Shown in pieces: positions 3,349-32,000 of a DNA stretch of 32,000 nucleotides; position 1 is the stretch's first letter; every line of letters starts with the position of its first letter. Source of the stretch: Chlamydiota bacterium (lineage in GTDB: Bacteria; Auribacterota; JACPWU01); the NCBI GenBank assembly GCA_016196885.1, contig JACPWU010000046.1, forward strand, positions 35,285 through 67,284. Reading direction: 5' to 3'. The notes under the pieces were generated by a model, which did no database searches, was not told the origin of the DNA, and saw only the letters and a program-made list of their open reading frames with translations. The translations under genes were made by a program, and so were the position numbers.

Positions 3349-3741
3349 TTATTTTATCTTGAGGTTTAAAATAAAATCCCTAATCTCAGAAAACATCTTG
3401 AAGGCGTTCGCCGCGTCCTTTTTATGAGGCAAACCATCAGGCAAAGAACCCGGAAGAGCATCAGGATAACGAGTCGGAATATAAAACTTATCTAGCTCAC
3501 GAAAGAAATCTTTAAACTCACTGAGGCGTGGCTCAAGTGAATGAGAAAAAGTAAAAAGCTCTAAGAGACTATGCGTCTTGTGAATAGGTCTATTGCGAAT
3601 AAACAAAAAACCCTTCAGAAGTTTTTCCACACCTTGTTGAGCATGAAAACATGTCTGATTATAGATCTCGTCCTCAAGAGCACTCTGAGCCATATGATAG
3701 TCCTCGTCCGCAAAATTGAACCACGGATTATTTACGCTCAT
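3349..3741 (-). CDS. HEPN-domain protein (toxin half of a HEPN/MNT pair)
   Basis: 130 aa. DYHMAQSALE...FHAQQGVEKLLKG and FYIPTRYPD are characteristic of the small HEPN family. It overlaps the upstream nucleotidyltransferase gene by 14 nt. Confidence 0.8.
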   Translation of the reverse strand: MSVNNPWFNFADEDYHMAQSALEDEIYNQTCFHAQQGVEKLLKGFLFIRNRPIHKTHSLLELFTFSHSLEPRLSEFKDFFRELDKFYIPTRYPDALPGSLPDGLPHKKDAANAFKMFSEIRDFILNLKIK

Positions 3742-18300: not shown

Positions 18301-21063
18301 AGCAACCTTCCCCTTCCCTTCTTTTAAGAGAATGGAGACAGACTGAACCTCTTCTAAAACACGAACGGAATCATACGAATAACTTCTATCCCGATACGTC
18401 AAAACATTGTTCCAAGTTTCTCTAAAAACTTTCACCTCAATTGAATCCAAAACCTTTGATATTTCTCCCTGACCTGTGACCGCAGCCACGTCAAAATCAG
18501 AAGGAGATCCTGGTGCCATCCTCCTAGATACGGGAGAACGAAGCGCCAAATAATAGGAAGGACCATCAATGAACAATTGCTCTGTCGAGCTCACCGCCCG
18601 CCCCCCCATTTCTTGGACACTGCCTGTAACCGTCAAAAGCCAAGGGCCCGCATAAGAAAATGTTTTGTCCTTCATTTTAGAAAGAGAAGCCAAATCAAGT
18701 TCCCATTTTCCCTTGCCCTGTTCATCCAGCTTAATGGGAGGCAATTCAATCGATTGACCTTCAGGAAGAGGCACCCCAAATGTCTTTAAAGTTTCTGCGC
18801 TGTCTCCAAAGGTCCAACCTTTCCATTTTTTCGAACGAAAAGAAGTGGGATCCAAACGTCCCGTCAAAGTCGCATCGCCATTTTTGGCCGGCTGGCCAAA
18901 AAGATAATCCCCTTTGATTTTAGCCTGAAGGGATTTATCTGAAAGTTTGTAACGCCCGCGTTCAGATGGCCTTAATTTAAGAGCCATTTTCATTCGATTG
19001 GGAACAAATTCCTCTACCAAAAATGAAGCCAATCCAAATTCTTCTTTCTCTTCCTTTCCAGATTTAGGAAGTCCCACGCAAACAGACCACCTCCCCGTCG
19101 GAATATCCTTTGGCAACTTCATAGAAAGATGAGACATGCCATTGGAATCCATTTTGACCATACGTCCCTTCCACTCTCGACCCTCAGGTCTGTAAAATTG
19201 CCATTTCACTGGAAAACTTTCAGGAACGGTAAGCTCTGAGCCTCGAACAATCGCCCAAAGATGAATTTTTTCTCCAGGACGGTAAGCCCCTCTCTCTGAA
19301 TAGACAAAAGCTTCATACCCCTTTCTTAAATAAGGCGTTCCGGAAACATCAAAATTAGAATAAGAAAGCTGGCTTGACCTTAAATCAAGCCAGGTGAGAC
19401 CTGTTTTTGAGGAATCAGAGGATGACAACTCTGCAACCACAATAGCAGGCCTCTCATCCTCCTTTATTTCTATTTTTTCTATTCTTGCCACCCCCTTTGA
19501 ATCCGTAAGCGCCTCTCCTAAAAGTTGATTTTTATCCGAAAAAAGTTTAATTCTAACTTTTTCCATCGGTTTTGCAGTCGCCAAAGAAATTGCCCACACA
19601 AAAATGCCGCCTGAGAACTGCTTTGCAACAAGGCCCACATCAGACAAGGTTACAACCGTAGAAGCCGATAAATAATAGTAGGCATCGTAAGTTCTATTTT
19701 CCTGATCTGGTTTTATTTTAATTTCATAAACCCCATCTCGAGCGATATCCTTGGTGAGCAATTCATCCAAAGACAGGCGTATGTCTTGAATTTTATTTTT
19801 CTCCACATTTAACTTCAAAGATTTTTCAGCAACAACCTGACTCAATTGACTCAAGCCATACCACCTGCTTTCATAGACCGTATTTCTCCACGCCACAATG
19901 TTGTTTTCATACATTCTGGTCACAATCACCTTCACATTTTCAATATTCACCGCATGGGCCAGCACCGCCCGGTTTCCTTGGGAACCTAAATAGCCTTGTT
20001 CCTGTTCAAACCACAGTTGAGGTTCTCGATCATCAATAAAAACGCTAAAAAGATCCGAACGTGGATAAATCTTTTGGGAATTTGAAACAGCAGGTTTGGA
20101 TATTTTTAAAGCATATCTTTGCCCTGGGATGAAATCTCCTTCTAAACTTGCCCCAAACCATTCCTTCATGCATGTGAAAGGCACCTGAGGCTCAACCGAA
20201 AGCACTTCTTTAAGAAGCTCCGTATCCATGTTGTTGTTCGAGTAAAGACGAATCTTGATTTTTCCCCGTGAAGAAGAATAGGGTTCAACTCTCGTGATCA
20301 TGAGTTGATTGCTTAAGACAAGCGTTGCTTCATAAGGAGCAGCCAGGCCCAAAGGACCACTCACCCCGCAAAGCCCCGCATCCAAATGAACCATCACCTG
20401 AGGAAAGGTCTCATGGTCTAGCTGTAGAAGAGGCGTTGGCTCTGTTATGATTCTGATGACATTCCCCGTACTTTCCCCATACAAATGGAAAGAGATGGCT
20501 TGATGATCCAAAGATTCCATTTTTAAACATTTCAGGGCTTCGGTAGATAAAACATTGTTGTTAAACTCGATCTCCAGCATAAATTGATCTCTTTCGTCAA
20601 AAGCCGCTTGGCGTATGGAGATCACTTCAAGAGGCGCCGTCTTCACAGTCACCGAAAAAGAACTGTTTGAACATCCCTCTTTTGAAAGAAGAGTTTTTTC
20701 TGGCAAAGTAAATGTAAAAGGAGTGGTCTTTGGAAGGTCTATTTCAGGTGTAAAAGCGAGCTTTCTGGGACCCAGCCAATCCCAATGCCCCTGGACGAGA
20801 TAAGGAGACTGAGAGGGTGTTTGAATCGTAATGGGAAGATGAGCAATCTCTGGAAAGTTTCGGTATTTTTCATCAATATCCAGATTAAATTCCCAAACCA
20901 GTATCGGTCGAGCCCCCACAACTGCATCTACCCCCGGACTAAATTTTATGACCTGCAAAAGATTTTCATTTTTAAACTGATTGAAATGAATATAACCCAA
21001 CCAAGCCCCGATATTTGCTACCGCAAAACAAGAAACGGTCATCCAAAATTTTTTGCTCAACAT
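15346..21063 (-). CDS. yfhM: Bacterial alpha-2-macroglobulin family protein with intact thioester motif
   Basis: About 1,905 aa of repeated beta-sandwich (MG-like) sequence. YPHGCAEQT thioester motif at 16729-16740, an N-terminal hydrophobic anchor, and upstream partnership with pbpC. Start set at ATG 21063 (GGAG 6 nt upstream) rather than the GTG at 21075. Confidence 0.9.
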   Translation of the reverse strand: MLSKKFWMTVSCFAVANIGAWLGYIHFNQFKNENLLQVIKFSPGVDAVVGARPILVWEFNLDIDEKYRNFPEIAHLPITIQTPSQSPYLVQGHWDWLGPRKLAFTPEIDLPKTTPFTFTLPEKTLLSKEGCSNSSFSVTVKTAPLEVISIRQAAFDERDQFMLEIEFNNNVLSTEALKCLKMESLDHQAISFHLYGESTGNVIRIITEPTPLLQLDHETFPQVMVHLDAGLCGVSGPLGLAAPYEATLVLSNQLMITRVEPYSSSRGKIKIRLYSNNNMDTELLKEVLSVEPQVPFTCMKEWFGASLEGDFIPGQRYALKISKPAVSNSQKIYPRSDLFSVFIDDREPQLWFEQEQGYLGSQGNRAVLAHAVNIENVKVIVTRMYENNIVAWRNTVYESRWYGLSQLSQVVAEKSLKLNVEKNKIQDIRLSLDELLTKDIARDGVYEIKIKPDQENRTYDAYYYLSASTVVTLSDVGLVAKQFSGGIFVWAISLATAKPMEKVRIKLFSDKNQLLGEALTDSKGVARIEKIEIKEDERPAIVVAELSSSDSSKTGLTWLDLRSSQLSYSNFDVSGTPYLRKGYEAFVYSERGAYRPGEKIHLWAIVRGSELTVPESFPVKWQFYRPEGREWKGRMVKMDSNGMSHLSMKLPKDIPTGRWSVCVGLPKSGKEEKEEFGLASFLVEEFVPNRMKMALKLRPSERGRYKLSDKSLQAKIKGDYLFGQPAKNGDATLTGRLDPTSFRSKKWKGWTFGDSAETLKTFGVPLPEGQSIELPPIKLDEQGKGKWELDLASLSKMKDKTFSYAGPWLLTVTGSVQEMGGRAVSSTEQLFIDGPSYYLALRSPVSRRMAPGSPSDFDVAAVTGQGEISKVLDSIEVKVFRETWNNVLTYRDRSYSYDSVRVLEEVQSVSILLKEGKGKVAVTPSGGGSYVVSIRDPKMGTLTSESFYVSEGEGWEDSISRERPDELKIKISPVRVGEKTEVVIRSPFPGTLLLTLETDHVIFHQVQEMTESYVTVPIDMTEEFRPNAYVSATVIQPVKSDAPWKMHRAFGVTRLRVENEDEKLLLKVDGPKEARPKTKVRIAVEVRNPTGEPVCNASVTLALVDEGILQLTDFSTPDPFEFFHQTRGLGVSGSDLYSELFPEIPALNPKSAVGGDGSGYNPRHLSPVSPQRIQNVALVSKILHSNSKGKVVAHFSLPEFSGSLRVMVIAHAGNLFGAMDQPMIVRSPLMFQTTLPRFVAMKDHFEMPITLFNHTGQKGSANLSIELKDEKAVLRFTNSSEKNSKSSLPLATESGYPLAGGRESGWSRETETMGRVREGGDLNPPSPNPSHLGRGILMENGGQVTLSIPLEAGEAMGTAHLYIEAELNGEKYTQELELPVRPPYPITSVGSDATVTPGHPMEIKIPEKWVSQTAQLNIRVFPFSTFNIVNALNYLNEYPHGCAEQTLSTAFPLIGLTKVGEKFFPDLFEKKYVTQRVDTTITRLIGMQTLDGGIAMWPGYREIWPWASVYAAHFLVEAESLGYEIPLDFRDRLFLYLQKLMKETSDNPDTLEIQAYACFVLAKAGKPERSIMTRLEELLKNPVVSEHEIYPSTRFYLALAWFYAGRRDLAMDLIPQDFARPRQSRELEGNIGSPIRDQSILAQALMELDPENAAIPKLIQEIAQAGDDKKWGSTQDYAFALMALGQYLEKVDMGEPFASCELGSDSEKILETKGGEALSWTSLNQDVIGKNFLVKIQGSEQAKGYISWTVTGVSKEAPKNEDHGISIRRKYLDQNGKPLSMNEIKSGDLIQVELDLETTITYDNLVIEDLLPAGFEIENPRFNTTAQLSNPDAVSAFVDSRVDIRDDRLVLYGKMSKGRATYTYLVRAITPGTFTIPPVRAQCMYDISINSLFGAGETLTISSKN
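17056..17206. repeat. Second copy of the 15251 element, carrying a nested ~66-nt insert, inside the a2m reading frame
   Basis: 17056-17125 and 17192-17206 align almost base for base with 15251-15332. 17126-17191 is extra and contains the hairpin ACCCGCAAGCGGGT. Translated in frame as ..PLAGGRESGWSRETETMGRVREGGDLNPPSPNPSHLGRGI.. Confidence 0.85.
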
Positions 21064-21333: not shown

Positions 21334-24300
21334 CTACATCTGCGTCTGAGTCAAATCCATCATAGCTTTGAGAGAGGCGAGGCGTTTGGTGGACCGAAGT
21401 TGAAGATGCCTTTTTTGATTCATCTCATCCATGGCAGGGGGATCTATCGACCGAAGGTCGTCACTTATTTTTTGTCCATGCTGGGCTAAAATGTCGAGAA
21501 TCACAGCCAGCTTGGCTTGGTCTAACCTTCCCTCCACAACCCAAGCCATGACACTATTCAACTCATCTCCCAAGCGTTCTTTCAAAGAAGAGGACACAAA
21601 CCATATTTCTTCTAAACTCTGACCCGTCATCTCCTGTCCAAAGCGCTTTTTCGCCTCTGTCTGAATCATCTGAAGGTAATTTTGAGGTGAAAGACGTGTC
21701 TTTCCTTCCCGGATGACAAAAACCTGAACATTCTTGAGATTTGGAGAAAGGCTTAAGGCCTGTCGGGCTGACTTCTCTAACACTTCATCACTTTCTTTAA
21801 CATTTTCATTCACAAAAACAGGAATCAATCCCTTGAAATCTTCTTCTTTTCCGGCCTCTCTCAAATCATTTAGATATTGATTCAAGGCTGTCGGATCCAC
21901 ATGCATTTGACCCTGATCCGTCACAGAAATTCCGACAATATCCTGATCCATGATAGAAACTTGATGGGCGGGAAGATGAGAGATTTGCTCTCGATGTTGC
22001 GTTTTATAAACCCGCCCCATCTCAACCCAAAGAGAACTGCAAACCACTTCTACTTCATGGGTAGAGGGATTGATCATCCTGACCCGTGCAATCACATGAG
22101 CCCTTTCACTTGAACCAGGCTCTTCAGGCAGATTTAAATCCAAAGTTGCCGGATTCTGACCCTCCCAAGATTCAAGGGCTGTTAATAAGTAGGAAAGAAA
22201 TTCTTCGTCTAAATTGGCGTTTACGATATGAATCCTAGAGGATCTTGATGTTAGGACAAGATCCCTCGTTACTCTCGGGATGACACTTTCAGTAGAAGGA
22301 TCTTCCCACATCGCCGCCAGTAAATCATCCAGATAAAGACTTTCAGTATAGTCTGAAAATCCTTCATACTGAGGAATGTGTCTCGGAAGTTCTCCTTTTC
22401 CATTCATGATAAAATTCGCTATTTTTTCAAGCTCTTGATCCTTTAGATCTAATCCGCGAACAGCTCCTGCCAATTGCAAAAGATCCCTAAAAATAGCTGA
22501 TTTTGCCTGCCGCCTTCCTTCTTGATCCACTTTCTCTCCCTTCTCCATGGCCCCAATCAATTTTAATACAGCTTGCCTCAAAGCTCCCACTCTCACATTT
22601 TCTCGAGTGATCAATCGAACCACTCTATCTAATGCCTTCTCAAAAGCCTCATCTCGATCTAGCTCGTTTGTTTGACCCATCAAGAGTCGCAACTGATTGA
22701 GAAGAAGCCGGCGAGCATATTCATCTACCCCCCTCTTAGGGTCAAGTCTTTCCTTGACTACATCTCTACCCAGCACCGTCGCCACCCACTCCTCCCATCC
22801 CAGCTGAACAGGCCTTCCCTCTTCCATGAGCCATTTGAGTTCACAAATATTTTTGTCTGCATCATAAGCTATAAGGTCTGGATACTTTTCGGATAATTGA
22901 ATCAGTTCTTGAATTTCATTTTCATAATCTTCTTGTGCCAACTTCATCCTTCTCTGTTCCTGAAGAGCTTTTTCGTGAAGGTCTTCCAAGAAGGCATATT
23001 CTTTTTCTGTCATGATCTGACGCGCTTCTACATTCCGGCCTATTAAATAATCTTCCAATCTTTGAATAGATTGAGGAATGAGAGAAACACCCTCCACATC
23101 TTCCATAAGTCTTTTTCGCCCTCGGGCTTGGTTTTTTGCCTGGATGGCCTCTCTCAAAGTATAAAAATCGTGATTCTGATTTTGATAAAGTTGTTTCATC
23201 TCTCTCATCCATTTTCTAAGCCCATGAAAAAACAGGGTAAATTTCTTTTTGGATTGACTAGATTTAACACCCATCAGAGTCTCCCTATCGCCCATCACAA
23301 CCAATCGATCTATCGAGCGACTCAAAGCCACATTCAAACGATTCAAATTTCGAATATGACCCACCTCTCCAGCAGAATTGCTCCTGACAAAGCTGTAGAT
23401 CACCACGTGGTTTTCCCTGCCTTGATAGCTATCTACCGTTGAAACTTGCTCACGAACAAGCCCCTCTGCTCGATCTGGATTCATATCTCTTTTCTGAGTT
23501 AAATAACTCTTTAAAAGATCTCTTATCAAATCCACTTGTGCAGCGTAACCGGTTAAAATGGTGATCTGTTCAGGTCTATAACCCGAAAGCAGGGCACGCT
23601 GATATTCCCGAAGAGCTTGTTCAGCCTCTTTCAGATTTTTATAACTTTTCCCTTCTTTCTCTTCATTGGGATGATTTCCTTCCATAGGAACATCTACCAT
23701 TCTCAATGTATCCCTTTCCATCATTCTCCAATACTTAGGAACCATCAACCTTCTATAAAACAATAAACCCACTAAAACTGTAATCGCAGGATGAGATCGA
23801 TAATTTCTCGCCAAAAATACTTGTGGGTATCCTCGATCCCATCTTCGACCCATGCCACTTCTCTTCATCAGTCTTAAAAATTCTTTTCCATGACCCGCCA
23901 TCCATTGACTTTCAAAATAAGGCTGCAACTGTCGATGATCCCCTGCTAGAACAACTTTCTCCCGAGCCTTGGCCACAGCCAGCAAAGTCTCCGCCTCATT
24001 CACAGTCCCGGCTTCTTCAACAATCACAACATCAAAATCATTTCGATAAGTCTCCGGCACAAGACCCATGGAGTGAATCGTCGCACCCACGACATAACCG
24101 TTCCCGTTTAAATTCCAACGGTGTTCACATATCCTAGCTCCTTCTCTATCATATTGATTAAAATTCTGACGATCTCGAACCCAATACTTTCTCAACTTTT
24201 CAAGAATTCTCTCATCTCCTCCACCATCTACCCCTTTGTTATACACACGCATGATGGGAAGTTCTATTTTGTCTAAACGGGCCAACAAATGATCCACAGC

Positions 24301-27300
24301 ACGATTGGTCCTGCTCACGACCATCACCCTTTTACCCTGCTGAACAAACTGTTGAACGATCCCGACCAATGTGGATGTCTTTCCACTGCCCGCCCCTCCC
24401 TGAATCAGAATGACATTGGCTTTAGGATTCAGGGAAACGTCTTGCGCATGGGATTGAAATGGATCGTTCTCAGTATTTCTGTCCATGCCAGAGTGAGCAT
24501 CCTCAATATCCAATCTAGATATAGGCGTTGGTTCTCTCAAACCTAAAAACTCTTTCACGGCATCCGTTGCAGTACCCTCTTCTATTTTCTGCTTCAAATC
24601 CATTAAAGCGATAGCCATCGCCCTTTGAAGTTCAGGACGCATCCCATTTTTACTCGCTCTTCCATCTGTTTTAAGTTTGGCAGTTCCTGCTATCAGCATG
24701 TCTAATTCATCTAAGACTTCTTTTCTTGTCCGTGTCTTAAGAAGAAAACCCTTTTCACCTGGAAGTTGCATAGAGGCAACTTCCGCTTCCCCATTAAATT
24801 CTCCATCTAAAACAGTTATGGACGGAAGTGTAACATTCCATTTCAGGGCGGCTACCCACAAAGGGCGGTTGGGCATCATCCCATTCAAGAGAGACCATAC
24901 ATCATTCCCAAAGCCCCCAGCTTCGCGTTCCCGAAGCGCCACTTGGACCTGCTCAACATTTGAATAACCCGAAGAGAGTCTTGGTTGAAAACCAATAGCG
25001 TTCCCCTTAAGAACCAGACGATGAAATCGAAAAATGGTTTTTCGATGAAAACGTTTTCTCGTCTCATAAATCCAACCTGCCAAGCTATCATCATAAAATC
25101 GTCTTATCTCAACAGGACCTTGACCCGGGCCTGTAGGCAAAACAACCCTCTTTTCCATTTTCTTTTTGAGTTCGCCTCGACCCGTTTCTTCAGTCCACGT
25201 CACGACAACTCTTCCAAATTTATCTGCCTTAAGGCTCCACGGACCTTCGAAAGGTTTCACAGCATTTTTCTCTAAACCTTTTTGACCCATTCTGACATGT
25301 TGAACAATTCTTTCCTCACTCGGATCAAACGGTTTTAAATCCAAATGTTTTTTATCTTCATTCCAGACCATTCTTAAGAAATTGATAAACTCTTCTCCTG
25401 CCACCACACGCCTCGTCTTGTAAACCCATCCCCATTCTGGATCAAAAGTACGACTCAATTTTGCAACCGATGGACATTCTTTTTTTGTTCCGGTAGCAGC
25501 CGAAACATGATGTTCCTTTTTTTGTTCGTCGACCCAATAAAAAGAAATATCTCCTCGAGCATCCGTGGGCACTTCCCAATCTTCAAAAGGCTCTACCGCC
25601 TTGCGTTTCTGGGCTTTGGTTTTTGACATTCTTAGATGAGCAACGATTTGTTCTCGAATAGGATCTTCAATCGGTTCAAACACCCAATGTCCCTTATCTT
25701 CTTCCCATTTCAACCGAGATTGACAAATAATGGTTTTAGATACTCCCTCTTCCGCCACCCTTCTTCGAGTTTCATAAATCCATTCTTTTCTCATGGAATC
25801 AAAAAACCGCCGAACCTCGGCTTCTCCTTCCTCTATAGAACCTGTAGACAATAACGCACTGTTTTTGCCCCAGCCATACGTCAGTTTGCCATTGCCAATC
25901 GTTCCTTGTTTCCACCATCCCAATTCCCTTACTGCATCTGACTTCTGAGCCTCACTCTTTCCCATACTCAGATGAGCCACAACTTCTCGGCGCATTCTAC
26001 CCAGCACCGTTCTATCTAAATTTTTAAACGTCCAAGAGTTATGACTCTCATCCCACTCCAACCTGGACTCGCTGATGATAAATCGGCGACGCCCATTCTC
26101 ATGAACTTCTCTACGCGTTCGATAGACCCAACCCCATTCACGCGTGTAAAAACGCATCACATCTACCCAGACTTTTCCACTGTTCTTACTTCCACTTGTG
26201 GACAAATACCTCTGTTTTCTGACGCCATTGACCGTCACGCTAAACAACAACTGACCGTCATCATTCGTTTCTTGACACCATCTGACGGATTGCGTCCCTT
26301 CCAATTCCAAATGCGTTAACTGATAAACTGTCTCGGCCTTACCCTCTTCAGAACTCAACTCCTTTGCCCGAAGCCACTGATAAACCCTCTGCGCAAAACC
26401 TAACCCTTCTTCTTGCAACATTGTTCTAAACATCGTGAGTTCTTCCACCGTTATCTTCAACTCTTGAAGGACATATTCAATATCCTCTTCCAAAAGCATG
26501 GCCTCTTCTTCTATCGTGTTACCTACACCCGACTCATGCCTGAGTTCATGCCTCAAACCGAGCTTCAATAATTTCAACCGGCAAGCAGGAGAAATTCTTG
26601 AGTTAAAAACTTGACCATTGATGCCAATAAAACCGTTCGTTTGATGATCTTCAAAAAGGTGAGTAGAACTTGAAAGGAGGGATAGAATAATTTCATTACC
26701 TTGCGGAGGTGAATGATCAAACTGCTCAGCCAAATATTCTTTCAAAAACTTTTCAAAATCATTTGAACCCTCAAAACCAAAAGCTGTAAACCTAGACAAA
26801 ATCTCTTTATCTATCCACACCGCTTTACCTGCAATCTCACCCAAAGATTTTGACTGGGCTTTAACTTGGCCTTTTATCTGCTGAATATCTTTTCCTTCTA
26901 TCCCCTGCCCCCACCACATCATTGGGCCCTCATTTTTGAGCTTTAGCCCTTCCATGTTGGCAATATTCGACGGAGCAGGTCCTGACACTCCAAATTTGCT
27001 TTCCCATTCTCTACTCAGAGGATCCACAAACAAATATTGAAACAAAGGATGTTGACCCTTATCTATAACATCTCCAACATCATGAGTTATTTTTTCCTGA
27101 CTGAGTCCTCTTCCTGAATAAAGTAGACCCAGGAAAAATACTTTATCATTGTCATTTAGCATTCTTTTTAAAACACGCTCGTTTTCAAATGGTGGGGCAT
27201 GTCCCAGGGCAGACTCCAGATGAAGGGCAAAAATCCACTCATCAATGTATATGCCTCTCATATACACATCTATGGTGTTCCAAATCATCCGGCGAAGATT

Positions 27301-28806
27301 CAGTTTTTGCTTTTGATCTAACACTCCCCGTTTCAAAATTTGATTAAAATACGTTCTGGAATTTTCATCTTGATTGTATTCCAATTGAAAATCATTCTGT
27401 CGCTCTCTTAAAACCAAAGCAATGTATTCCATCGCTTGCTCATTTGCCAATATCTCAGGCCAAAATCCCAGGGCCAATCGCCTCTGAAAAAGGACACGTA
27501 AGGAGCCATCTTCTTTCAGACGCTCAACCTGTAATCTTCGATCGCTTCCCAAAATTTTTCCCATTTCTTCTGTTATTCTCTTATGCTCTTTCAGGTAAGG
27601 CGTATGATCTATATGAAAGGCCTCATGTGCCATAAACGCCTCCAAGGCATATTTTCGATAAGCCTCCGTTATTAGATCCAAATTAACCGTCAGCTTTTGA
27701 TCCAAAGGCTCCATGGTCATGGGTGCTTTAACCCCTTTTCCGCCTCTCCCTCTAACAACCACCAGTTGAATTTCACGTGTGCGTAGTTTTTCAAGCAATA
27801 CTTGTGCTTTTTCTTTCTGGGGAGATTCCAGCATGCCTTCTTGAATGGACTGAAGCTTTTGAAGAGCTTGCGCTTGATCACTTAAAGCAGGAGTATTCAT
27901 AAAAGAATTTGAAGAAGAAGGTGCTACTGGAATTTTGCTTTCTTTTTTCTGAGGCCTCAAAAAACCTAACCAATAAGAGACTCCAACCACGCCAACAACA
28001 CCCAATCCACCCAAAAACCATCTTCTTGAAAAAGTTTTTGACTGTTTTTGTAACGCGACAATCAATGCTGAACTCCCTTGAAATAAATCCACCGATATCA
28101 AGTCTCGTACAGCAATCCCCAACTCTCTTGCATAATCAACATCTTGATCAAACAGCTCTTTTTCAAACGCATCCAGCTCTTCATCCAACTTCTCTTTCAT
28201 CTCATGCCTCAACTCATGACGAAGGCCCAAATTAAGGAGTTTAAAAAGAAATGAGTTGTCTATATTTTGTGCAAATAGCTGTTTGCTGATACCTATAAAT
28301 CCATTGCCTTGATGGTCTTCAAAAGGATGGCGGGAATTTTCGAGGAGGGAAATCACAAAAGCACCCGCATATCCAGCTTTTTCACGAGAGCGCACCTGAG
28401 CTAAAAGCTGACCCTGCTCTGCATCCGTCATACGATCCATTTGCTGCTGAAAAGCCTGACGAATCAGTTCTACTTTTCCTAAATCTGCTCCCGGAAAATC
28501 AAAAACAGCTTCAACCTGACTCCCCTTTTCATCTCCATGGCGTAAAACAAAACTCTCTTTCTTTCCTTTCGAATGGATGAAGCGCTTATATTCCTTCAAT
28601 CTTTCTTCATTCGTCAAATCAATCCGTTTTCCATTTTTAAATCCTTGGCGTTTTATCCAAACTCCACTTTCTCCCTTCTTAAAACTGAGCCCTTCCATGT
28701 GGGCAATGACTGAGGTCAGATCCTGTAATTTAACCTCTGGAAGTTCTTGCCGCTCCACATTTCGATTGACTCTCTTTGATAGAATCTTTAGAATCCGCTC
28801 CATCAT
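21334..28806 (-). CDS. Minimal version of the giant gene (2,490 aa) starting at ATG-ATG 28806
   Basis: MMERILKILSKR.. is the first in-frame Met pair after the antisense stretch. Everything downstream (HELRH modules, repeats, helicase motifs) has normal protein-like composition. No good SD at a canonical distance (GGAG 14 nt upstream), so the start is uncertain. Confidence 0.6.
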   Translation of the reverse strand: MMERILKILSKRVNRNVERQELPEVKLQDLTSVIAHMEGLSFKKGESGVWIKRQGFKNGKRIDLTNEERLKEYKRFIHSKGKKESFVLRHGDEKGSQVEAVFDFPGADLGKVELIRQAFQQQMDRMTDAEQGQLLAQVRSREKAGYAGAFVISLLENSRHPFEDHQGNGFIGISKQLFAQNIDNSFLFKLLNLGLRHELRHEMKEKLDEELDAFEKELFDQDVDYARELGIAVRDLISVDLFQGSSALIVALQKQSKTFSRRWFLGGLGVVGVVGVSYWLGFLRPQKKESKIPVAPSSSNSFMNTPALSDQAQALQKLQSIQEGMLESPQKEKAQVLLEKLRTREIQLVVVRGRGGKGVKAPMTMEPLDQKLTVNLDLITEAYRKYALEAFMAHEAFHIDHTPYLKEHKRITEEMGKILGSDRRLQVERLKEDGSLRVLFQRRLALGFWPEILANEQAMEYIALVLRERQNDFQLEYNQDENSRTYFNQILKRGVLDQKQKLNLRRMIWNTIDVYMRGIYIDEWIFALHLESALGHAPPFENERVLKRMLNDNDKVFFLGLLYSGRGLSQEKITHDVGDVIDKGQHPLFQYLFVDPLSREWESKFGVSGPAPSNIANMEGLKLKNEGPMMWWGQGIEGKDIQQIKGQVKAQSKSLGEIAGKAVWIDKEILSRFTAFGFEGSNDFEKFLKEYLAEQFDHSPPQGNEIILSLLSSSTHLFEDHQTNGFIGINGQVFNSRISPACRLKLLKLGLRHELRHESGVGNTIEEEAMLLEEDIEYVLQELKITVEELTMFRTMLQEEGLGFAQRVYQWLRAKELSSEEGKAETVYQLTHLELEGTQSVRWCQETNDDGQLLFSVTVNGVRKQRYLSTSGSKNSGKVWVDVMRFYTREWGWVYRTRREVHENGRRRFIISESRLEWDESHNSWTFKNLDRTVLGRMRREVVAHLSMGKSEAQKSDAVRELGWWKQGTIGNGKLTYGWGKNSALLSTGSIEEGEAEVRRFFDSMRKEWIYETRRRVAEEGVSKTIICQSRLKWEEDKGHWVFEPIEDPIREQIVAHLRMSKTKAQKRKAVEPFEDWEVPTDARGDISFYWVDEQKKEHHVSAATGTKKECPSVAKLSRTFDPEWGWVYKTRRVVAGEEFINFLRMVWNEDKKHLDLKPFDPSEERIVQHVRMGQKGLEKNAVKPFEGPWSLKADKFGRVVVTWTEETGRGELKKKMEKRVVLPTGPGQGPVEIRRFYDDSLAGWIYETRKRFHRKTIFRFHRLVLKGNAIGFQPRLSSGYSNVEQVQVALREREAGGFGNDVWSLLNGMMPNRPLWVAALKWNVTLPSITVLDGEFNGEAEVASMQLPGEKGFLLKTRTRKEVLDELDMLIAGTAKLKTDGRASKNGMRPELQRAMAIALMDLKQKIEEGTATDAVKEFLGLREPTPISRLDIEDAHSGMDRNTENDPFQSHAQDVSLNPKANVILIQGGAGSGKTSTLVGIVQQFVQQGKRVMVVSRTNRAVDHLLARLDKIELPIMRVYNKGVDGGGDERILEKLRKYWVRDRQNFNQYDREGARICEHRWNLNGNGYVVGATIHSMGLVPETYRNDFDVVIVEEAGTVNEAETLLAVAKAREKVVLAGDHRQLQPYFESQWMAGHGKEFLRLMKRSGMGRRWDRGYPQVFLARNYRSHPAITVLVGLLFYRRLMVPKYWRMMERDTLRMVDVPMEGNHPNEEKEGKSYKNLKEAEQALREYQRALLSGYRPEQITILTGYAAQVDLIRDLLKSYLTQKRDMNPDRAEGLVREQVSTVDSYQGRENHVVIYSFVRSNSAGEVGHIRNLNRLNVALSRSIDRLVVMGDRETLMGVKSSQSKKKFTLFFHGLRKWMREMKQLYQNQNHDFYTLREAIQAKNQARGRKRLMEDVEGVSLIPQSIQRLEDYLIGRNVEARQIMTEKEYAFLEDLHEKALQEQRRMKLAQEDYENEIQELIQLSEKYPDLIAYDADKNICELKWLMEEGRPVQLGWEEWVATVLGRDVVKERLDPKRGVDEYARRLLLNQLRLLMGQTNELDRDEAFEKALDRVVRLITRENVRVGALRQAVLKLIGAMEKGEKVDQEGRRQAKSAIFRDLLQLAGAVRGLDLKDQELEKIANFIMNGKGELPRHIPQYEGFSDYTESLYLDDLLAAMWEDPSTESVIPRVTRDLVLTSRSSRIHIVNANLDEEFLSYLLTALESWEGQNPATLDLNLPEEPGSSERAHVIARVRMINPSTHEVEVVCSSLWVEMGRVYKTQHREQISHLPAHQVSIMDQDIVGISVTDQGQMHVDPTALNQYLNDLREAGKEEDFKGLIPVFVNENVKESDEVLEKSARQALSLSPNLKNVQVFVIREGKTRLSPQNYLQMIQTEAKKRFGQEMTGQSLEEIWFVSSSLKERLGDELNSVMAWVVEGRLDQAKLAVILDILAQHGQKISDDLRSIDPPAMDEMNQKRHLQLRSTKRLASLKAMMDLTQTQM

Positions 28807-31800
28807 GGAAGAGAAAAAGTCTCCAAAACCCGTTCCTACTTCTGAAGAAACCCAACGATACAACTCCGTTCTGATTGAGGAAATGCGAGGCCAATTTAAG
28901 GTGATTGGAGAAGGACTGACCAGCTTTAGGAAAGAAGCTAATGAGAAATTTGATACCCTATACGAGATGGTTGCCAAAAACACTGAAGATATTGGAGATG
29001 TCCGCATCCGAATGGGTCGGGTTGAAGAAAAACTTGAAAGAATGGAAGGGGACCTTCGCATCATCAAGAACCAAATCAAAGTCAAAGTAGACCTTGAAGA
29101 ATTCAAATTGCTAGAAGGTAGACTTGTCATTGTCGAAAAACGGCTTTCAGCACTCGCCTCTTGATTTTTTTCCACGACAGCTCTTAAATACTCCAAATTC
29201 ATCTGATGATGTCGCCACATCGTCAGAGCAAAAAGTCCTACACCAAAAAATCCAATCACAAACCAATGGGAACGAAAGAATTGAAGATGAGGAACAACAC
29301 CCAACCCATTGACACCTCTAGGAAGGGTTGTTAAACTTCCCTTATGGCCCCTACCAAAACGATTTTCTACCTGGTTGCCTTGAACTCCAACGTAAGACGA
29401 AGACATAAACATACCCGGATAGGGAAGACAGTTACGAGTTTTTCCGTCCAAATTAAAATTTCCCATAACAGGATCTGGAAGGTCATTGTCAGGTACGATA
29501 CCGCTCATGGCTTTGCCCATAGAGACCTGATCAGGGCCAGTGGAAAGGTTGACAAAAACCCACTTTTCGTTCAGAATTACAATGAGGCCTTGGATACTGC
29601 TGAAGCTGATCTTCGTAACAATTGGGAAAGTTACGTTGACAACTTCCTGAAGGAGAATGAATAATGACGGAAAAAATCTTGTTTGAGAAAAATCTAGAAC
29701 TTTCAACAGAATTCTCAAAATACGTTTTGTCTCACCCAGAACTGGATGATCAGATTCCTGAGGGGGCACAGATTGTCTTCTTACTTGAGAGCGACCCTGC
29801 CCTTTCCAAAAAAAATCTTGAACTCGCCAAAGAACAGCATGAAGAAGGTCAACCTGTTGTCCTTGTTCACGTGGAGGGACTTCGTCCCGAAGTTTCTCGC
29901 CTGATCTCACCCCGTCTTGAAAAGGCTGTTGGGTTTTAGCCACAACAAATTGATTCAAATACCCCAAATTCATCCGATGATGTCGCCAAGTCGTGAGGAC
30001 AAAAAATCCCACGCCAAAAGATGCAATCATCATCCAATGGGAAGAAATCAAGAAAAGCGTGTAGGCAACCGAAACCGCAGCAAAATTCTCTAATGCAATT
30101 CTAAATATTCCAGACCACGGTGGCGCACGAAGACCCAGTTCTTTAAGCAATCTCTTACGTCCTGGAATATGCCCAACCGTAAAACTTGCCCATACAAAAG
30201 CCAAAATCCCAAAACCAGCAAATCCTCCTGAAAGGACCGCCAAAGCACTCAAACCCCAAAATGTCACGTGCTCAATTGTCGCTTGATGTTCAAGCTCAAT
30301 CTCCAACCCTTTAAAAACTCTAAAATTTTCAATCGCCCAAGATAAAAGAGGGATTATGCCTGCTTCGGCCTTTTCAGTTACACTCTCAGCCTCTGAAAAC
30401 GCCGGGAAAAAGCGGTCCAAAACCGCTAAGGTTTCATCGGGGCTGTGCACTTCCCGAAAGCATCCTCCCAAAGGCTGCATCCAGAGGTCACCGTCCAGAC
30501 TCAGGCTCGGATCATTTCCAATGGCCAGCGCTTGTCCGGGAACAATCCCCCTTTTACTCATCATAAAATCTCTTCCAACCGCTTTCGTAATGCCTTTCGG
30601 AACAATGTGCCAACCATCTTCCGAGACTTCGAGCTTCTCCGCCATAGCCCTAATTTGATCATCTGGTTTTTGTTTAAGCTGTTCGACTAAACGTCCGCCA
30701 CTTCCATAGGCCTCCAGAGAAGCCCCACGATTGTGCACTGATTCTCCTAACACCTGTGCCAGTTGGCTAAAATCAATCTCTTGTTCTTCAGCCTTGTCAT
30801 ATTTCTTAGCCCAACTTTCCTCCTCCCATAAATATCCTTGAGCGGATCCACAGGGGAAAAGACCTATTCTATTTAGAATAGGGTCCCGTTGCTCTGGCGT
30901 CCAACCCTGCATTCTCTCTTCTAAGGGGCGAATGACATTCTTTCGCAATTCTTCCATGCCCTGCATCGTGACGACCATGAGAGAAAGATCGGCATGGCTC
31001 CATAAAATGTTCACCAGCTTCTCTACCATTTGTGACGAAAGAGGTGTTTTTTTAGGCGTTACTAATGTTCCATCCAAATCGAGGGCTAAAAGATGAATCT
31101 CATTTTCGGCATGATTGGCTTGCAGAGGAAAAGATGAATCATCTCGAAAGATTTCTTTAAATGTCTCGCCCTCTATAAAATCGTTCCATAGTCCTCTCAA
31201 ACCATTCGTCAGGCGCCAGCTCGTCTTAAGCTTCCAGCCGCCATTGGATCTTTGAGCAACCAACTGTCCTTCCCTCTCTTTACCCTTGTCATCCCAGCGC
31301 TTCCATTGCAAGGCATTCCCACTGAGATGCAAACGATCTATATTCGTCTTACGAGGTAGCGCCGCATGACAGAAAATCCATTCCTGCCCTTGCGTCCCTA
31401 ATCGCGGTTCACCTGTCTCATTCGAACTATCGTACCCCTGAGGCACTGGCTCATAAGGACCATCGAACTCTCCCAGAAGAGGAGCAGAATGCTCTACTGG
31501 ATACCACGCCCTTGGGTACCAGAATTTCACCTCCGTTCCCTGACGCCTGAGCAGCCCAAGACTATTCGCAAACCACGCCTCCCAACTTTGAGGAATAGCA
31601 ATACCCTTCGATTTCATCAAATAGCAGAGATACCCTACGAAAGCCGAAGGATAATGAAACTTGTTTGGAGAATGTTCAGGACTTTCCATGGATCCAAATG
31701 AAACATCTACCACAATCACCTGCCTCGCCCGCCCTATCTTGGACTTTTCCTCATCAGAGAATACATCGTCAAAATATCCAGTGAATCCCACATTCTCAAT

Positions 31801-32000
31801 CTTGCTCGATCCAATTTTTGTTTGAATCACTTGAATATTTGTTCCCAAAATATAAGTGTTTCCATCCACACGCTCATCCGTCAATGCCGCGAGAGGAAAC
31901 CAGCCATTGGTTAAATTAGCCACCACAACCATGGCCTGATCAGCGGCTTCATAACTTCCCAATGATTCTTTTAAAGCCTCCCTTCGCTTCAGAATAAGAT
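21334..32000 (-). CDS. Maximal giant ORF (>3,555 codons, 5' end open at the window edge): HAD-like + membrane block + HExxH modules + novel repeats + SF1B helicase
   Basis: No in-frame stop from 32000 down to the TAG at 21334-21336. The track start at 31962 is a TTG and the frame continues open upstream (..LILKRREALKES-LGSY..). Most of the translation looks like genuine protein, but 28805-29939 is antisense to better plus-strand genes (see findings). Confidence 0.55.
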   Translation of the reverse strand, partial: LILKRREALKESLGSYEAADQAMVVVANLTNGWFPLAALTDERVDGNTYILGTNIQVIQTKIGSSKIENVGFTGYFDDVFSDEEKSKIGRARQVIVVDVSFGSMESPEHSPNKFHYPSAFVGYLCYLMKSKGIAIPQSWEAWFANSLGLLRRQGTEVKFWYPRAWYPVEHSAPLLGEFDGPYEPVPQGYDSSNETGEPRLGTQGQEWIFCHAALPRKTNIDRLHLSGNALQWKRWDDKGKEREGQLVAQRSNGGWKLKTSWRLTNGLRGLWNDFIEGETFKEIFRDDSSFPLQANHAENEIHLLALDLDGTLVTPKKTPLSSQMVEKLVNILWSHADLSLMVVTMQGMEELRKNVIRPLEERMQGWTPEQRDPILNRIGLFPCGSAQGYLWEEESWAKKYDKAEEQEIDFSQLAQVLGESVHNRGASLEAYGSGGRLVEQLKQKPDDQIRAMAEKLEVSEDGWHIVPKGITKAVGRDFMMSKRGIVPGQALAIGNDPSLSLDGDLWMQPLGGCFREVHSPDETLAVLDRFFPAFSEAESVTEKAEAGIIPLLSWAIENFRVFKGLEIELEHQATIEHVTFWGLSALAVLSGGFAGFGILAFVWASFTVGHIPGRKRLLKELGLRAPPWSGIFRIALENFAAVSVAYTLFLISSHWMMIASFGVGFFVLTTWRHHRMNLGYLNQFVVAKTQQPFQDGVRSGEKLRDEVPPREQGQQVDLLHAVLWRVQDFFWKGQGRSQVRRQSVPPQESDHPVLGETKRILRILLKVLDFSQTRFFPSLFILLQEVVNVTFPIVTKISFSSIQGLIVILNEKWVFVNLSTGPDQVSMGKAMSGIVPDNDLPDPVMGNFNLDGKTRNCLPYPGMFMSSSYVGVQGNQVENRFGRGHKGSLTTLPRGVNGLGVVPHLQFFRSHWFVIGFFGVGLFALTMWRHHQMNLEYLRAVVEKNQEASAESRFSTMTSLPSSNLNSSRSTLTLIWFLMMRRSPSILSSFSSTRPIRMRTSPISSVFLATISYRVSNFSLASFLKLVSPSPITLNWPRISSIRTELYRWVSSEVGTGFGDFFSSMMERILKILSKRVNRNVERQELPEVKLQDLTSVIAHMEGLSFKKGESGVWIKRQGFKNGKRIDLTNEERLKEYKRFIHSKGKKESFVLRHGDEKGSQVEAVFDFPGADLGKVELIRQAFQQQMDRMTDAEQGQLLAQVRSREKAGYAGAFVISLLENSRHPFEDHQGNGFIGISKQLFAQNIDNSFLFKLLNLGLRHELRHEMKEKLDEELDAFEKELFDQDVDYARELGIAVRDLISVDLFQGSSALIVALQKQSKTFSRRWFLGGLGVVGVVGVSYWLGFLRPQKKESKIPVAPSSSNSFMNTPALSDQAQALQKLQSIQEGMLESPQKEKAQVLLEKLRTREIQLVVVRGRGGKGVKAPMTMEPLDQKLTVNLDLITEAYRKYALEAFMAHEAFHIDHTPYLKEHKRITEEMGKILGSDRRLQVERLKEDGSLRVLFQRRLALGFWPEILANEQAMEYIALVLRERQNDFQLEYNQDENSRTYFNQILKRGVLDQKQKLNLRRMIWNTIDVYMRGIYIDEWIFALHLESALGHAPPFENERVLKRMLNDNDKVFFLGLLYSGRGLSQEKITHDVGDVIDKGQHPLFQYLFVDPLSREWESKFGVSGPAPSNIANMEGLKLKNEGPMMWWGQGIEGKDIQQIKGQVKAQSKSLGEIAGKAVWIDKEILSRFTAFGFEGSNDFEKFLKEYLAEQFDHSPPQGNEIILSLLSSSTHLFEDHQTNGFIGINGQVFNSRISPACRLKLLKLGLRHELRHESGVGNTIEEEAMLLEEDIEYVLQELKITVEELTMFRTMLQEEGLGFAQRVYQWLRAKELSSEEGKAETVYQLTHLELEGTQSVRWCQETNDDGQLLFSVTVNGVRKQRYLSTSGSKNSGKVWVDVMRFYTREWGWVYRTRREVHENGRRRFIISESRLEWDESHNSWTFKNLDRTVLGRMRREVVAHLSMGKSEAQKSDAVRELGWWKQGTIGNGKLTYGWGKNSALLSTGSIEEGEAEVRRFFDSMRKEWIYETRRRVAEEGVSKTIICQSRLKWEEDKGHWVFEPIEDPIREQIVAHLRMSKTKAQKRKAVEPFEDWEVPTDARGDISFYWVDEQKKEHHVSAATGTKKECPSVAKLSRTFDPEWGWVYKTRRVVAGEEFINFLRMVWNEDKKHLDLKPFDPSEERIVQHVRMGQKGLEKNAVKPFEGPWSLKADKFGRVVVTWTEETGRGELKKKMEKRVVLPTGPGQGPVEIRRFYDDSLAGWIYETRKRFHRKTIFRFHRLVLKGNAIGFQPRLSSGYSNVEQVQVALREREAGGFGNDVWSLLNGMMPNRPLWVAALKWNVTLPSITVLDGEFNGEAEVASMQLPGEKGFLLKTRTRKEVLDELDMLIAGTAKLKTDGRASKNGMRPELQRAMAIALMDLKQKIEEGTATDAVKEFLGLREPTPISRLDIEDAHSGMDRNTENDPFQSHAQDVSLNPKANVILIQGGAGSGKTSTLVGIVQQFVQQGKRVMVVSRTNRAVDHLLARLDKIELPIMRVYNKGVDGGGDERILEKLRKYWVRDRQNFNQYDREGARICEHRWNLNGNGYVVGATIHSMGLVPETYRNDFDVVIVEEAGTVNEAETLLAVAKAREKVVLAGDHRQLQPYFESQWMAGHGKEFLRLMKRSGMGRRWDRGYPQVFLARNYRSHPAITVLVGLLFYRRLMVPKYWRMMERDTLRMVDVPMEGNHPNEEKEGKSYKNLKEAEQALREYQRALLSGYRPEQITILTGYAAQVDLIRDLLKSYLTQKRDMNPDRAEGLVREQVSTVDSYQGRENHVVIYSFVRSNSAGEVGHIRNLNRLNVALSRSIDRLVVMGDRETLMGVKSSQSKKKFTLFFHGLRKWMREMKQLYQNQNHDFYTLREAIQAKNQARGRKRLMEDVEGVSLIPQSIQRLEDYLIGRNVEARQIMTEKEYAFLEDLHEKALQEQRRMKLAQEDYENEIQELIQLSEKYPDLIAYDADKNICELKWLMEEGRPVQLGWEEWVATVLGRDVVKERLDPKRGVDEYARRLLLNQLRLLMGQTNELDRDEAFEKALDRVVRLITRENVRVGALRQAVLKLIGAMEKGEKVDQEGRRQAKSAIFRDLLQLAGAVRGLDLKDQELEKIANFIMNGKGELPRHIPQYEGFSDYTESLYLDDLLAAMWEDPSTESVIPRVTRDLVLTSRSSRIHIVNANLDEEFLSYLLTALESWEGQNPATLDLNLPEEPGSSERAHVIARVRMINPSTHEVEVVCSSLWVEMGRVYKTQHREQISHLPAHQVSIMDQDIVGISVTDQGQMHVDPTALNQYLNDLREAGKEEDFKGLIPVFVNENVKESDEVLEKSARQALSLSPNLKNVQVFVIREGKTRLSPQNYLQMIQTEAKKRFGQEMTGQSLEEIWFVSSSLKERLGDELNSVMAWVVEGRLDQAKLAVILDILAQHGQKISDDLRSIDPPAMDEMNQKRHLQLRSTKRLASLKAMMDLTQTQM
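23270..24450 (-). other. Upf1/DNA2-like SF1B helicase core within the giant ORF
   Basis: Walker A GGAGSGKTS (24376-24402), Walker B FDVVIVEEAG, motif III VVLAGDHRQLQP (23921-23955), NYRSHPAI, VDSYQGRENHVVIYSFVRSN and motif VI NRLNVALSRS (about 23324-23360). Confidence 0.85.
24980..26290 (-). repeat. Four tandem ~117-aa (about 351-nt) protein repeats of an unrecognised domain
   Basis: Recurring core: VMRFYTREWGWVYRTRREV (26111-26160), VRRFFDSMRKEWIYETRRRV (about 25751-25815), SRTFDPEWGWVYKTRRVV (about 25407-25456), IRRFYDDSLAGWIYETRKRF (about 25051-25107). Each of the first three cores is followed by SRLxWxEDxxHWxFxP and (I)VAHLxMxK..AQK..AV; the fourth repeat lacks these trailing motifs. Confidence 0.8.
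26420..26985 (-). other. HELRH module, copy 2 (paralogue of 28090-28725)
   Basis: IANMEGLKLKNEG ... LFEDHQTNGFIGINGQVF ... LKLGLRHELRHES; HELRH codons at 26536-26550. Confidence 0.6.
26986..27960 (-). other. Region with a third HExxH motif (AFMAHEAFHIDH)
   Basis: HEAFH codons at 27613-27627. The region follows the twin-arginine-like hydrophobic segment. No family recognised. Confidence 0.4.
27963..28035 (-). other. Twin-arginine-like motif plus hydrophobic helix (TFSRRWFLGGLGVVGVVGVSYWLG) inside the giant ORF
   Basis: SRRWFLG matches the S/T-R-R-x-F-L Tat consensus and is followed by about 20 hydrophobic residues. It could equally be an internal transmembrane helix. Confidence 0.5.
28090..28725 (-). 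other. HELRH module, copy 1
   Basis: IAHMEGLSFKKGESG ... PFEDHQGNGFIGISKQLF ... LNLGLRHELRHEM; HELRH codons at 28204-28218. Confidence 0.6.
28805..29164 (+). CDS. 119-aa coiled-coil protein of unknown function, antisense to the giant frame
   Basis: MEEKKSPKPVPTSEETQRYNSVLIEEMRGQFKVIGEGLTSFRKEANEKFDTLYEMV...LEGRLVIVEKRLSALAS has balanced, heptad-like composition. The opposite-strand translation over the same bases has 30 Ser in about 120 residues by my count. No clear SD. Confidence 0.55.
   Translation: MEEKKSPKPVPTSEETQRYNSVLIEEMRGQFKVIGEGLTSFRKEANEKFDTLYEMVAKNTEDIGDVRIRMGRVEEKLERMEGDLRIIKNQIKVKVDLEEFKLLEGRLVIVEKRLSALAS
29172..29275. repeat. Direct repeat copy A (about 105 nt), immediately 3' of the 28805 gene
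   Basis: 29186-29271 aligns without gaps to 29957-30042, with 71 of 86 positions identical by hand count. On the minus strand it encodes SHWFVIGFFGVGLFALTMWRHHQMNLEYLRAVVEKNQE. Confidence 0.8.
29344..29664 (+). CDS. 106-aa small protein with RYDTAHGFAHRD motif (first gene of a two-gene cassette)
   Basis: ..KVIVRYDTAHGFAHRDLIRASGKVDKNPLFVQNYNEALDTAEADLRNNWESYVDNFLKENE resembles, from memory, small uncharacterised proteins with an (R)YDxAHG..H motif that precede a ~90-aa partner. Its stop overlaps the next ATG (TAATG). The N-terminal 30 aa look poor, so the start is uncertain. Confidence 0.55.
   Translation: MAPTKTIFYLVALNSNVRRRHKHTRIGKTVTSFSVQIKISHNRIWKVIVRYDTAHGFAHRDLIRASGKVDKNPLFVQNYNEALDTAEADLRNNWESYVDNFLKENE
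29664..29939 (+). CDS. 91-aa small protein, DUF5647-like by recollection (second gene of the cassette)
   Basis: MTEKILFEKNLELSTEFSKYVLSHPELDDQIPEGAQIVFLLESDPALSKKNLELAKEQHEEGQPVVLVHVEGLRP.. has normal globular composition. AAGGAG (29650-29655) lies 8 nt upstream of the ATG. The family name is recalled, not verified. Confidence 0.7.
   Translation: MTEKILFEKNLELSTEFSKYVLSHPELDDQIPEGAQIVFLLESDPALSKKNLELAKEQHEEGQPVVLVHVEGLRPEVSRLISPRLEKAVGF
29940..30046. repeat. Direct repeat copy B (about 105 nt), immediately 3' of the 29664 gene
   Basis: Partner of 29172-29275 at an offset of 771 nt (257 codons). On the minus strand it encodes SHWMMIASFGVGFFVLTTWRHHRMNLGYLNQFVVAKTQQ. Confidence 0.8.
29990..30360 (-). 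other. Multi-helix hydrophobic (membrane) block of the giant frame
   Basis: IIPLLSWAIENF, VTFWGLSALAVLSGGFAGFGILAFVWASFTV, IFRIALENFAAVSVAYTLFLI and HWMMIASFGVGFFVLTTW are consecutive hydrophobic stretches of helix length. Confidence 0.6.
30470..31100 (-). other. HAD-superfamily-like phosphatase fold within the giant frame
   Basis: Motif I LLALDLDGTLV (about 31066-31086). A long cap-like insert, conserved Lys region PKGITKAVG, and a terminal acidic motif AIGNDPSLSLDGD (30481-30537). The pattern fits Cof/IIB-type HAD proteins, but similarity was judged by eye only. Confidence 0.5.

Follow-up and report, generated by a model that had tools for sequence, protein, structure and literature searches.

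In a genome of the phylum Auribacterota, a pair of small plus-strand genes lies antisense inside a giant minus-strand reading frame, bracketed by two diverged direct copies of a short segment of that frame. We consider it probable (roughly 0.6) that this repeat is an in-frame duplication of about 90 nucleotides (nt) of the host gene, which arose with or within the event that inserted a 667-nt cassette encoding a DUF7718 and a DUF5647 protein backwards into the giant gene. The window is the whole 32,000-nt stretch analysed (G000:C57:35285-67284, GenBank contig JACPWU010000046.1), and its end is the contig end; positions given without a contig refer to it. G000 is the genome under study, a fragmented metagenome-assembled genome (MAG) of 2.23 Mb in 66 contigs, and G001 is a related, independent MAG. 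C-labels (C17, C19, C24, C33, C38, C52, C57, C62) denote contigs and L-labels (e.g., L032) compared loci.

The direct repeat and the cassette between its copies

A repeat search identified an 87-nt direct repeat at 29186-29272 (copy B, minus strand) and 29957-30043 (copy A, minus strand), which is gap-free, 83% identical and spaced by 771 nt (3 × 257). A bracket test, in which the two cassette flanks (260 nt on each side) were aligned locally and scored against 300 shuffles, recovered the same pair with z = 34. Both copies share one stop-free minus frame, in which they read SHWMMIASFGVGFFVLTTWRHHRMNLGYL (copy A) and SHWFVIGFFGVGLFALTMWRHHQMNLEYL (copy B), and both encode the last transmembrane helix of a membrane module followed by the motif HHxMNLxYL (WRHHRMNLGYL in A, WRHHQMNLEYL in B). 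An earlier interpretation made from the letters of the window, the sequence-only reading, had described a gap-free repeat with an in-frame offset of 771 nt and a helix plus WRHHxMNLxYL in each copy, and this description was confirmed. Counted in the giant frame, the copies differ at 16 of the 87 positions, and nowhere do they match perfectly over more than 13 nt. Copy A is contiguous with the complete membrane module upstream and lies 17 nt past the DUF5647 stop codon; copy B stands alone, as a duplicate of helix and motif that no membrane module precedes. From the end of copy B to the DUF7718 ATG there are 66-71 nt, and from the DUF5647 stop to the start of copy A 1-17 nt. The duplication brackets the cassette exactly: 667 nt of unique and about 104 nt of duplicated sequence make up the 771 nt added, and no stop codon occurs in the giant frame across the insert.

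The repeat had also been described as continuing, across a 3-nt indel, up to the stop codons of the plus-strand genes. Weak similarity is seen there (29172-29185 versus 29940-29956, about 8 of 17 positions), but the extension itself is unproven. Further copies of the repeat, for which a search had been suggested, were not found: BLAST of the whole assembly returned two DNA copies and no third one in any of the 66 contigs. A role as RNA structure or terminator was ruled out by the fold z-scores of the two copies (-1.0 and -0.5 on the plus strand, +1.5 and -2.1 on the minus strand), which show no shared stable fold, and by the absence of a terminator call at either copy.

The unique inserted segment (29273-29939, plus strand, 667 nt) consists of a linker of about 36 nt, a promoter and two genes, and ends at a TAG stop codon. 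The predicted promoter is of the sigma-70 type (29309-29337, plus strand; TTGACA-N17-TAAACT with a TG extension) and ends 6 nt before the ATG of the DUF7718 gene (29344-29664, plus strand, 106 amino acids (aa)), which matches its Pfam family over the full length (E = 5e-29) and whose codons coincide exactly with giant-frame codons. The DUF5647 gene (29664-29939, plus strand, 91 aa) is likewise a full-length Pfam match (E = 7e-28) and is supported by codon usage; its ATG overlaps the DUF7718 stop by 1 nt. The promoter (TTGAC-N17-TAnAnT) is conserved in a paralogous cassette on C24 and in the cassettes of other MAGs. In the five cassette loci, homology is confined to the stretch between the -35 box and the stop codon, and the cassette is thus a compact, discrete promoter-to-stop unit.

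Two small overlapping genes with their own promoter are the layout of a type II toxin-antitoxin operon; no toxin domain or immunity pairing was recognised in the cassette. Searches for a function gave no match in NCBIfam, PADLOC, PHROGs or PDB sequences, and only the families DUF7718 and DUF5647 were recognised. Within the 771 nt there is no integrase or recombinase gene, the insert holding only the two DUF genes, and no inverted repeat was found at the insert ends. The proposal that the repeat brackets an inserted two-gene cassette is supported, and the plus-strand genes next to the copies are genuine, i.e., the two Pfam-supported genes and a coiled-coil gene whose family has 196 representatives.

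The giant frame and its membrane module

Both copies and all three plus-strand genes are contained in an open frame of at least 3,554 codons (21334-31998, minus strand) that runs off the contig end; its translation and the membrane topology of the product were deduced from the sequence. The end frames of C52 (3,301 codons; contig end at G000:C52:41723) and C57 (3,554 codons; window position 31998) are collinear with one 3,123-codon frame of G001 and are probably, judging by this collinearity, one gene of more than 7,000 codons that was broken in the assembly.

With the proteins held fixed and the codon usage of the genome, the probability of finding no stop in the minus frame is 0.09 for DUF7718, 0.024 for DUF5647 and 0.07 for the coiled-coil gene. 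In ordinary G000 genes, antisense windows of equal length and matched phase are open at frequencies of 0.054, 0.018 and 0.003, respectively. All antisense frames of a free-standing DUF7718 paralogue on C62 are interrupted, whereas the nested paralogue on C24 lies in an open frame of 6,021 codons. For DUF7718 loci in public genomes (n = 80), the median length of the longest antisense frame is 75 codons; six loci have one of 750 to more than 2,770 codons, and four of these six are labelled Candidatus Omnitrophota. The nearest relatives of the cassette carry the same NCBI label, and in a tree the window cassette groups with three nested copies in one clade (support 100/97). In all six nested cases that were phased, the DUF7718 codons coincide exactly with host codons, which is the antisense phase easiest to keep open. 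The giant frame is kept open by more than chance. The coiled-coil gene adds little to this argument, because a G001 copy just outside the giant gene has an open antisense frame as well (139 codons).

These numbers bear on an explanation without any giant gene, in which antisense frames that are open by chance or through some other selection link separate convergent genes, each copy being the 3′ end of one of two minus-strand paralogues. Such a reading could draw on the open coiled-coil antisense frame outside the giant frame in G001 and on the promoter-like sites and candidate internal starts that exist. We consider it very unlikely, since three such open antisense stretches would occur together by chance with a probability of no more than about 1e-4, the independent MAG G001 and four further cassette-carrying MAGs have the frame open as well, copy B has no gene body in front, and in none of its five instances is the motif followed by a stop codon. 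An assembly artefact is extremely improbable: the MAG is fragmented and C52 and C57 both end inside the giant gene, but the 83%-identical copies do not collapse or chimerise, and the cassette with both junctions lies about 2 kb inside the contig.

The motif HHxMNLxYL was found in only five places in the DNA examined: in copies A and B, at G000:C52:40406-40885, at G001:C33:38806-39372 and at G001:C38:69738-70271. Three instances belong to G000 and two to G001, the only two genomes carrying the membrane module, and all five lie in open frames of 2,740-3,554 codons. In four of the five, the motif closes a homologous multi-helix membrane module of about 150 aa according to the alignment. The full module that ends in copy A (29950-30378, minus strand, termed type 2) was delimited by a profile search (G000:C57:65234-65662, E = 5e-57), alignment and hydrophobicity peaks; copy B matches only the last 42 of the 158 profile positions (model 116-157). 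The core ATGAATTTG is identical in all five modules, and the codons of the conserved H, H, M, N, L, Y and L vary among the five instances almost only at third positions (CAT/CAC, TAT/TAC, TTG/TTA); the motif is thus under protein-level selection on the minus strand.

Behind the motif, the frame runs on for hundreds to thousands of codons in all five instances, on G001:C38 without a convincing gene on the opposite strand. Since no stop follows, the helix does not form the C-terminal end of a shorter protein. The sequence-only reading had placed the insertion at the C-terminal helix of a shorter ancestral protein, which did not hold up: the helix is the last one of an internal module of about 150 aa. 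For the same reason a C-terminal sorting signal of the PEP-CTERM or LPXTG type, which would sit at the extreme C-terminus, was rejected. Searches detected no relatives of the module or of the domain upstream of it in the collected genome contigs or, by profile, in metagenome contigs, a wobble-degenerate 59-nt pattern found none either, and the only matches in the protein database were the window's own protein and a G001-like protein, P0002.

By nucleotide identity, copies A and B are closest to one another: they share 73% in the helix and 91% in the motif, compared to 32-47% and 64-79% with the other three modules. In a relative-rate test with the type-2 module of G001:C38 as outgroup, the outgroup agrees with A at 11 and with B at one of the 16 A/B differences (p = 0.006). 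Because 11 of the 12 polarisable differences fall on B, copy A is the resident, constrained copy that kept the ancestral state; copy B either evolved faster or derives from a diverged source. The tail downstream of copy B is the antisense of the 3′ end of the coiled-coil gene and has related counterparts in C52 and G001:C33. Coding constraint on the minus strand, which had been proposed to be tested by the pattern of substitutions, gave a weak signal: comparison of A and B alone yields a ratio of nonsynonymous to synonymous substitution rates (dN/dS) of 0.43, with 3, 6 and 7 differences at the first, second and third codon positions, which is too little sequence for a firm, adequately powered test. 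The giant frame is the only one of the six frames that is stop-free in both copies, and copy B keeps a fully hydrophobic helix.

The two copies might also be an ordinary internal repeat, i.e., a segmental duplication of the giant protein's own, with the cassette between them being incidental. The giant frames of G000 hold many in-frame domain repeats without nested genes, and the membrane module itself is a repeated building block. We regard this explanation as unlikely, given that the duplicated piece comprises only the last 29-35 codons of the 150-codon module, with ends that match the cassette ends, and that the same kind of bracket surrounds a hicBA operon elsewhere in the genome.

The relative genome and other nested cassettes

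Window positions 30400-32000 are 90% identical at the nucleotide level to G001:C33. The similarity stops abruptly at 30400, which is the exact junction of a HAD-like domain (ending in DRFFPA) and the membrane module, and resumes with 70% at 29211-29078, from inside the motif of copy B (about 29211) into the coiled-coil gene. Downstream of the shared domain, G001:C33 carries one module, one motif and the coiled-coil gene, and no cassette. Its module and coiled-coil gene share their type with those in G000:C52, where the pair occupies another position of what is probably the same giant gene, and G001:C33 was therefore rejected as a clean empty site. At the sequence level, this comparison shows that units of module plus nested gene have been reshuffled and that the conserved motif coincides with the breakpoint. 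The unit of genes plus repeat had been proposed to be duplicated or modular. Modularity stands, the module being present at differing positions and in differing types in G000 and G001; a duplication of the whole unit does not, since only the host segment of about 90 nt is duplicated.

Such reshuffling would also be expected if helix and motif were a recombination handle, a homology block through which modules or cassettes are exchanged between paralogous giant genes, reversibly, by Campbell-type integration or by unequal exchange of cassette plus handle. This would account for the similarity that stops at 30400 and resumes inside motif B, for the differing positions of module plus coiled-coil gene in G000:C52 and G001:C33, for the mosaic look of copy B (a helix like that of A, a motif end and tail like the coiled-coil-adjacent type), for the core shared by all five modules and for the presence of the cassette clade in non-homologous host contexts. 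We nevertheless find it doubtful. The genome holds only two copies at the DNA level, no other locus pairs this cassette with the HHxMNLxYL motif, and no empty-site or alternative-cassette allele was found in the genome contigs, the metagenome contigs or 79 genomes of the phylum. In addition, a perfect identity of 13 nt is below what efficient RecA-type recombination needs. Recombination between the copies had been predicted to excise the cassette precisely and in frame. Loss of 771 nt would indeed keep the frame by arithmetic, but with a longest perfect match of 13 nt present-day homologous excision should be rare, and the searches that returned no allele without the cassette returned no excision product either.

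A scan of the long G000 frames for in-frame direct repeats found one other pair that encloses real antisense genes. On C24, positions 20772-20810 and 21465-21504 (40 nt, 90% identical, codon offset 693, z = 19) enclose hicA and hicB. What is duplicated in frame here is block B (R[S/R]IKTTANHPYL) of the intein in the 6,021-codon C24 frame; the cassettes in related inteins of C19 and G001 are different ones, sit elsewhere in the intein and have no duplication around them. At L032, a locus of another MAG whose cassette belongs to the same clade as the window cassette, a possible 20-nt bracket of like geometry was detected (offset 693, z = 6), the left copy of which ends 69 nt before the ATG and the right copy of which starts 5 nt after the stop. 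The bracket at L033 is marginal (z = 2.8). Altogether, two of 14 nested cassettes have clear brackets, possibly three or four. A flanking duplication at the C24 DUF pair (AGAHPVS versus AGGTHPLS) was not significant, and L032-L035 do not support the idea that nested cassettes generally lie next to a transmembrane helix.

Two side observations concern repeats in these frames. A perfect 26-nt direct repeat on C24 (G000:C24:26452-26477 and 26707-26732, offset 255 = 3 × 85) has as its second copy the last eight codons and stop of the nested DUF5647 paralogue, and the 229 nt in between encode a transmembrane helix of the giant frame; the region has the look of a small insertion or duplication that happened recently and in frame. 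Peptides of the form (S)(K/R)LEAR(S/G) recur in L021/L014 (G001:C33 giant frame, first 300 residues) and in L030, where they arise from short tandem DNA repeats with AAGCTCG-like units; the bracket motif of L032, RSEARG, is similar.

Several known systems resemble the arrangement in part. As in the target-site duplications of transposable elements, direct host repeats bracket a discrete insert, and one copy joins the upstream and the other the downstream host sequence. Typical transposable elements give fixed target duplications of 2-15 bp. Here, by contrast, the duplications are long and variable (87-100 nt in the window, 40 nt at hicBA and about 20 nt at L032), neither a transposase nor terminal inverted repeats are present, and the duplicate is kept as predicted coding sequence. 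Insertion of a transposon or insertion sequence, with a fixed 2-15 bp duplication, terminal inverted repeats and a transposase or recombinase gene, was therefore rejected, and the variable duplication lengths (about 20, 40 and about 100 nt) together with the lack of a recombinase and of inverted repeats argue against a classical transposase. Campbell-type integration (attL/attR) likewise leaves diverged direct repeats of a gene segment on both sides of an insert, and recombination would restore one copy. It differs in that no integrase and no tRNA or gene-end target is seen here and in that the 667-nt insert sits antisense within an open frame that runs on beyond it. An integrative element with att sites was rejected, as the 771 nt hold no integrase or recombinase gene and the longest identical run is 13 nt.

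In the orphan toxin/immunity modules of CdiA/Rhs proteins, with their VENN or PxxxxDPxGL pretoxin segments, a short coding segment also recurs in front of differing small gene blocks and possibly serves as a swapping handle; in contrast to these, the genes here are antisense, the host frame runs through, and neither a toxin domain nor an immunity pairing was recognised. A further likeness is to the antisense toxin-antitoxin operons in giant-gene inteins (hicBA on C24), which are small self-promoted two-gene cassettes opposite an open giant frame and, in the case of hicBA, are bracketed by a duplicated host segment. The window cassette differs in being surrounded by no intein: the 3,554 aa of the giant frame have no Hint-type or other intein Pfam match, and the cassette is flanked by the transmembrane helix and HHxMNLxYL instead of the Hint-domain blocks of an intein with a nested gene, which was rejected as an explanation.

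The neighbouring coiled-coil gene (28805-29164, plus strand) is small, nested antisense, and ends 21 nt from copy B; its codon usage favours the plus strand. The 196 representatives of its family (E ≤ 0.001) are mostly 90-170 aa long, match nearly the whole query and are strongly conserved in the C-terminal half. A promoter-like site (TTGACT-N17-TAGAAT, 28766-28794) lies 10 nt before its ATG, and at 28803-28810 this ATG (28805) overlaps back-to-back with an in-frame minus-strand ATG ATG (MMERILK...), a possible internal start of the giant frame. The gene has four paralogues in G000, all antisense-nested in long open frames with third codon positions always coinciding. The copies lie at window 28805-29164, G000:C52:40900-41334, C57:4541-5032, C17:34743-35258 and L014 14298-14792 and 11631-11978; the free-standing G001 copy with the open 139-codon antisense frame directly follows the stop of the giant gene. 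Beside the coiled-coil gene on C17, a 71-aa DUF2283-like gene, recognised by eye (G000:C17:35359-35574), is antisense in a long frame that leaves the contig. At L104, a locus of a Candidatus Omnitrophota MAG, direct repeats of 39-46 nt (3397-3441, 4876-4926 and 5560-5598) separate successive cassettes, i.e., DUF7718/DUF5647 plus a DUF2283-like gene and then an antitoxin/PemK-like pair, which recalls a cassette array with a common boundary element.

Origin of the duplication and its meaning

According to the explanation we favour, a pre-existing cassette without antisense stops would have been inserted beside the end of the membrane module, and the insertion event would have duplicated about 90-100 nt of host coding sequence. 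The duplication would then stem from the insertion process itself and not from a purpose-built recombination site. Possible routes are a repair- or replication-type insertion, in which the target duplication is long and of variable length, and integration of a circle that brings along a homologous segment. Insertions would be expected to survive only if the frame is kept. Read-through would add an antisense-encoded loop of about 230 residues, at about residues 681-908 of the giant frame, together with one more hydrophobic helix and another copy of the motif. One borderline hydrophobic stretch was predicted in the loop, which may or may not pair with helix B. Because no intein surrounds the cassette, the antisense-encoded stretch would not be spliceable by any known route.

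Several points weigh against this origin. That the giant frame is translated straight through the insert is something we infer. The 3′ motif codons of copy B resemble the coiled-coil-adjacent type when a second outgroup is used, which fits a recombinational origin too. The nearest comparison, G001:C33, is a module swap and not a clean empty site, because its module is of the other type, closest to that of G000:C52, and the collections of contigs and phylum genomes searched yielded no allele that could replace it. Ten nested cassettes have no bracket, namely five coiled-coil genes, the C24 DUF pair, L034, L035, the C19 PIN/UPF0175 pair and L030 of G001. The bracket at L032 is uncertain because the host has a third copy of the short motif 240 nt away, which might be a recurrent host motif. 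Finally, we know of no bacterial insertion mechanism that gives duplications of 20-100 nt. The rate of two clear brackets in 14 fits a scar that decays with age, and the insertion model predicts that young nested cassettes are bracketed by in-frame host duplications and older ones are not.

As a wider and quite tentative suggestion, self-promoted cassettes with a stop-free opposite strand might be lineages adapted to giant genes, whose entry leaves in-frame host duplications of 20-100 nt. If true, mobile modules would have an undescribed route into coding DNA that does not inactivate it, and in the window the host protein would have been remodelled by an added loop and an extra membrane helix. 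No mention of antisense-nested cassettes was found in the giant-gene preprints searched. If the favoured explanation holds, the repeat is the physical trace of a foreign gene pair that entered a giant gene without breaking it and gives a first mechanistic handle on antisense-nested cassettes in the giant genes of uncultivated bacteria. Giant proteins could then accommodate hundreds of residues encoded antisense, together with an additional membrane helix, which would bear on how such proteins grow, on gene calling and on domain annotation.

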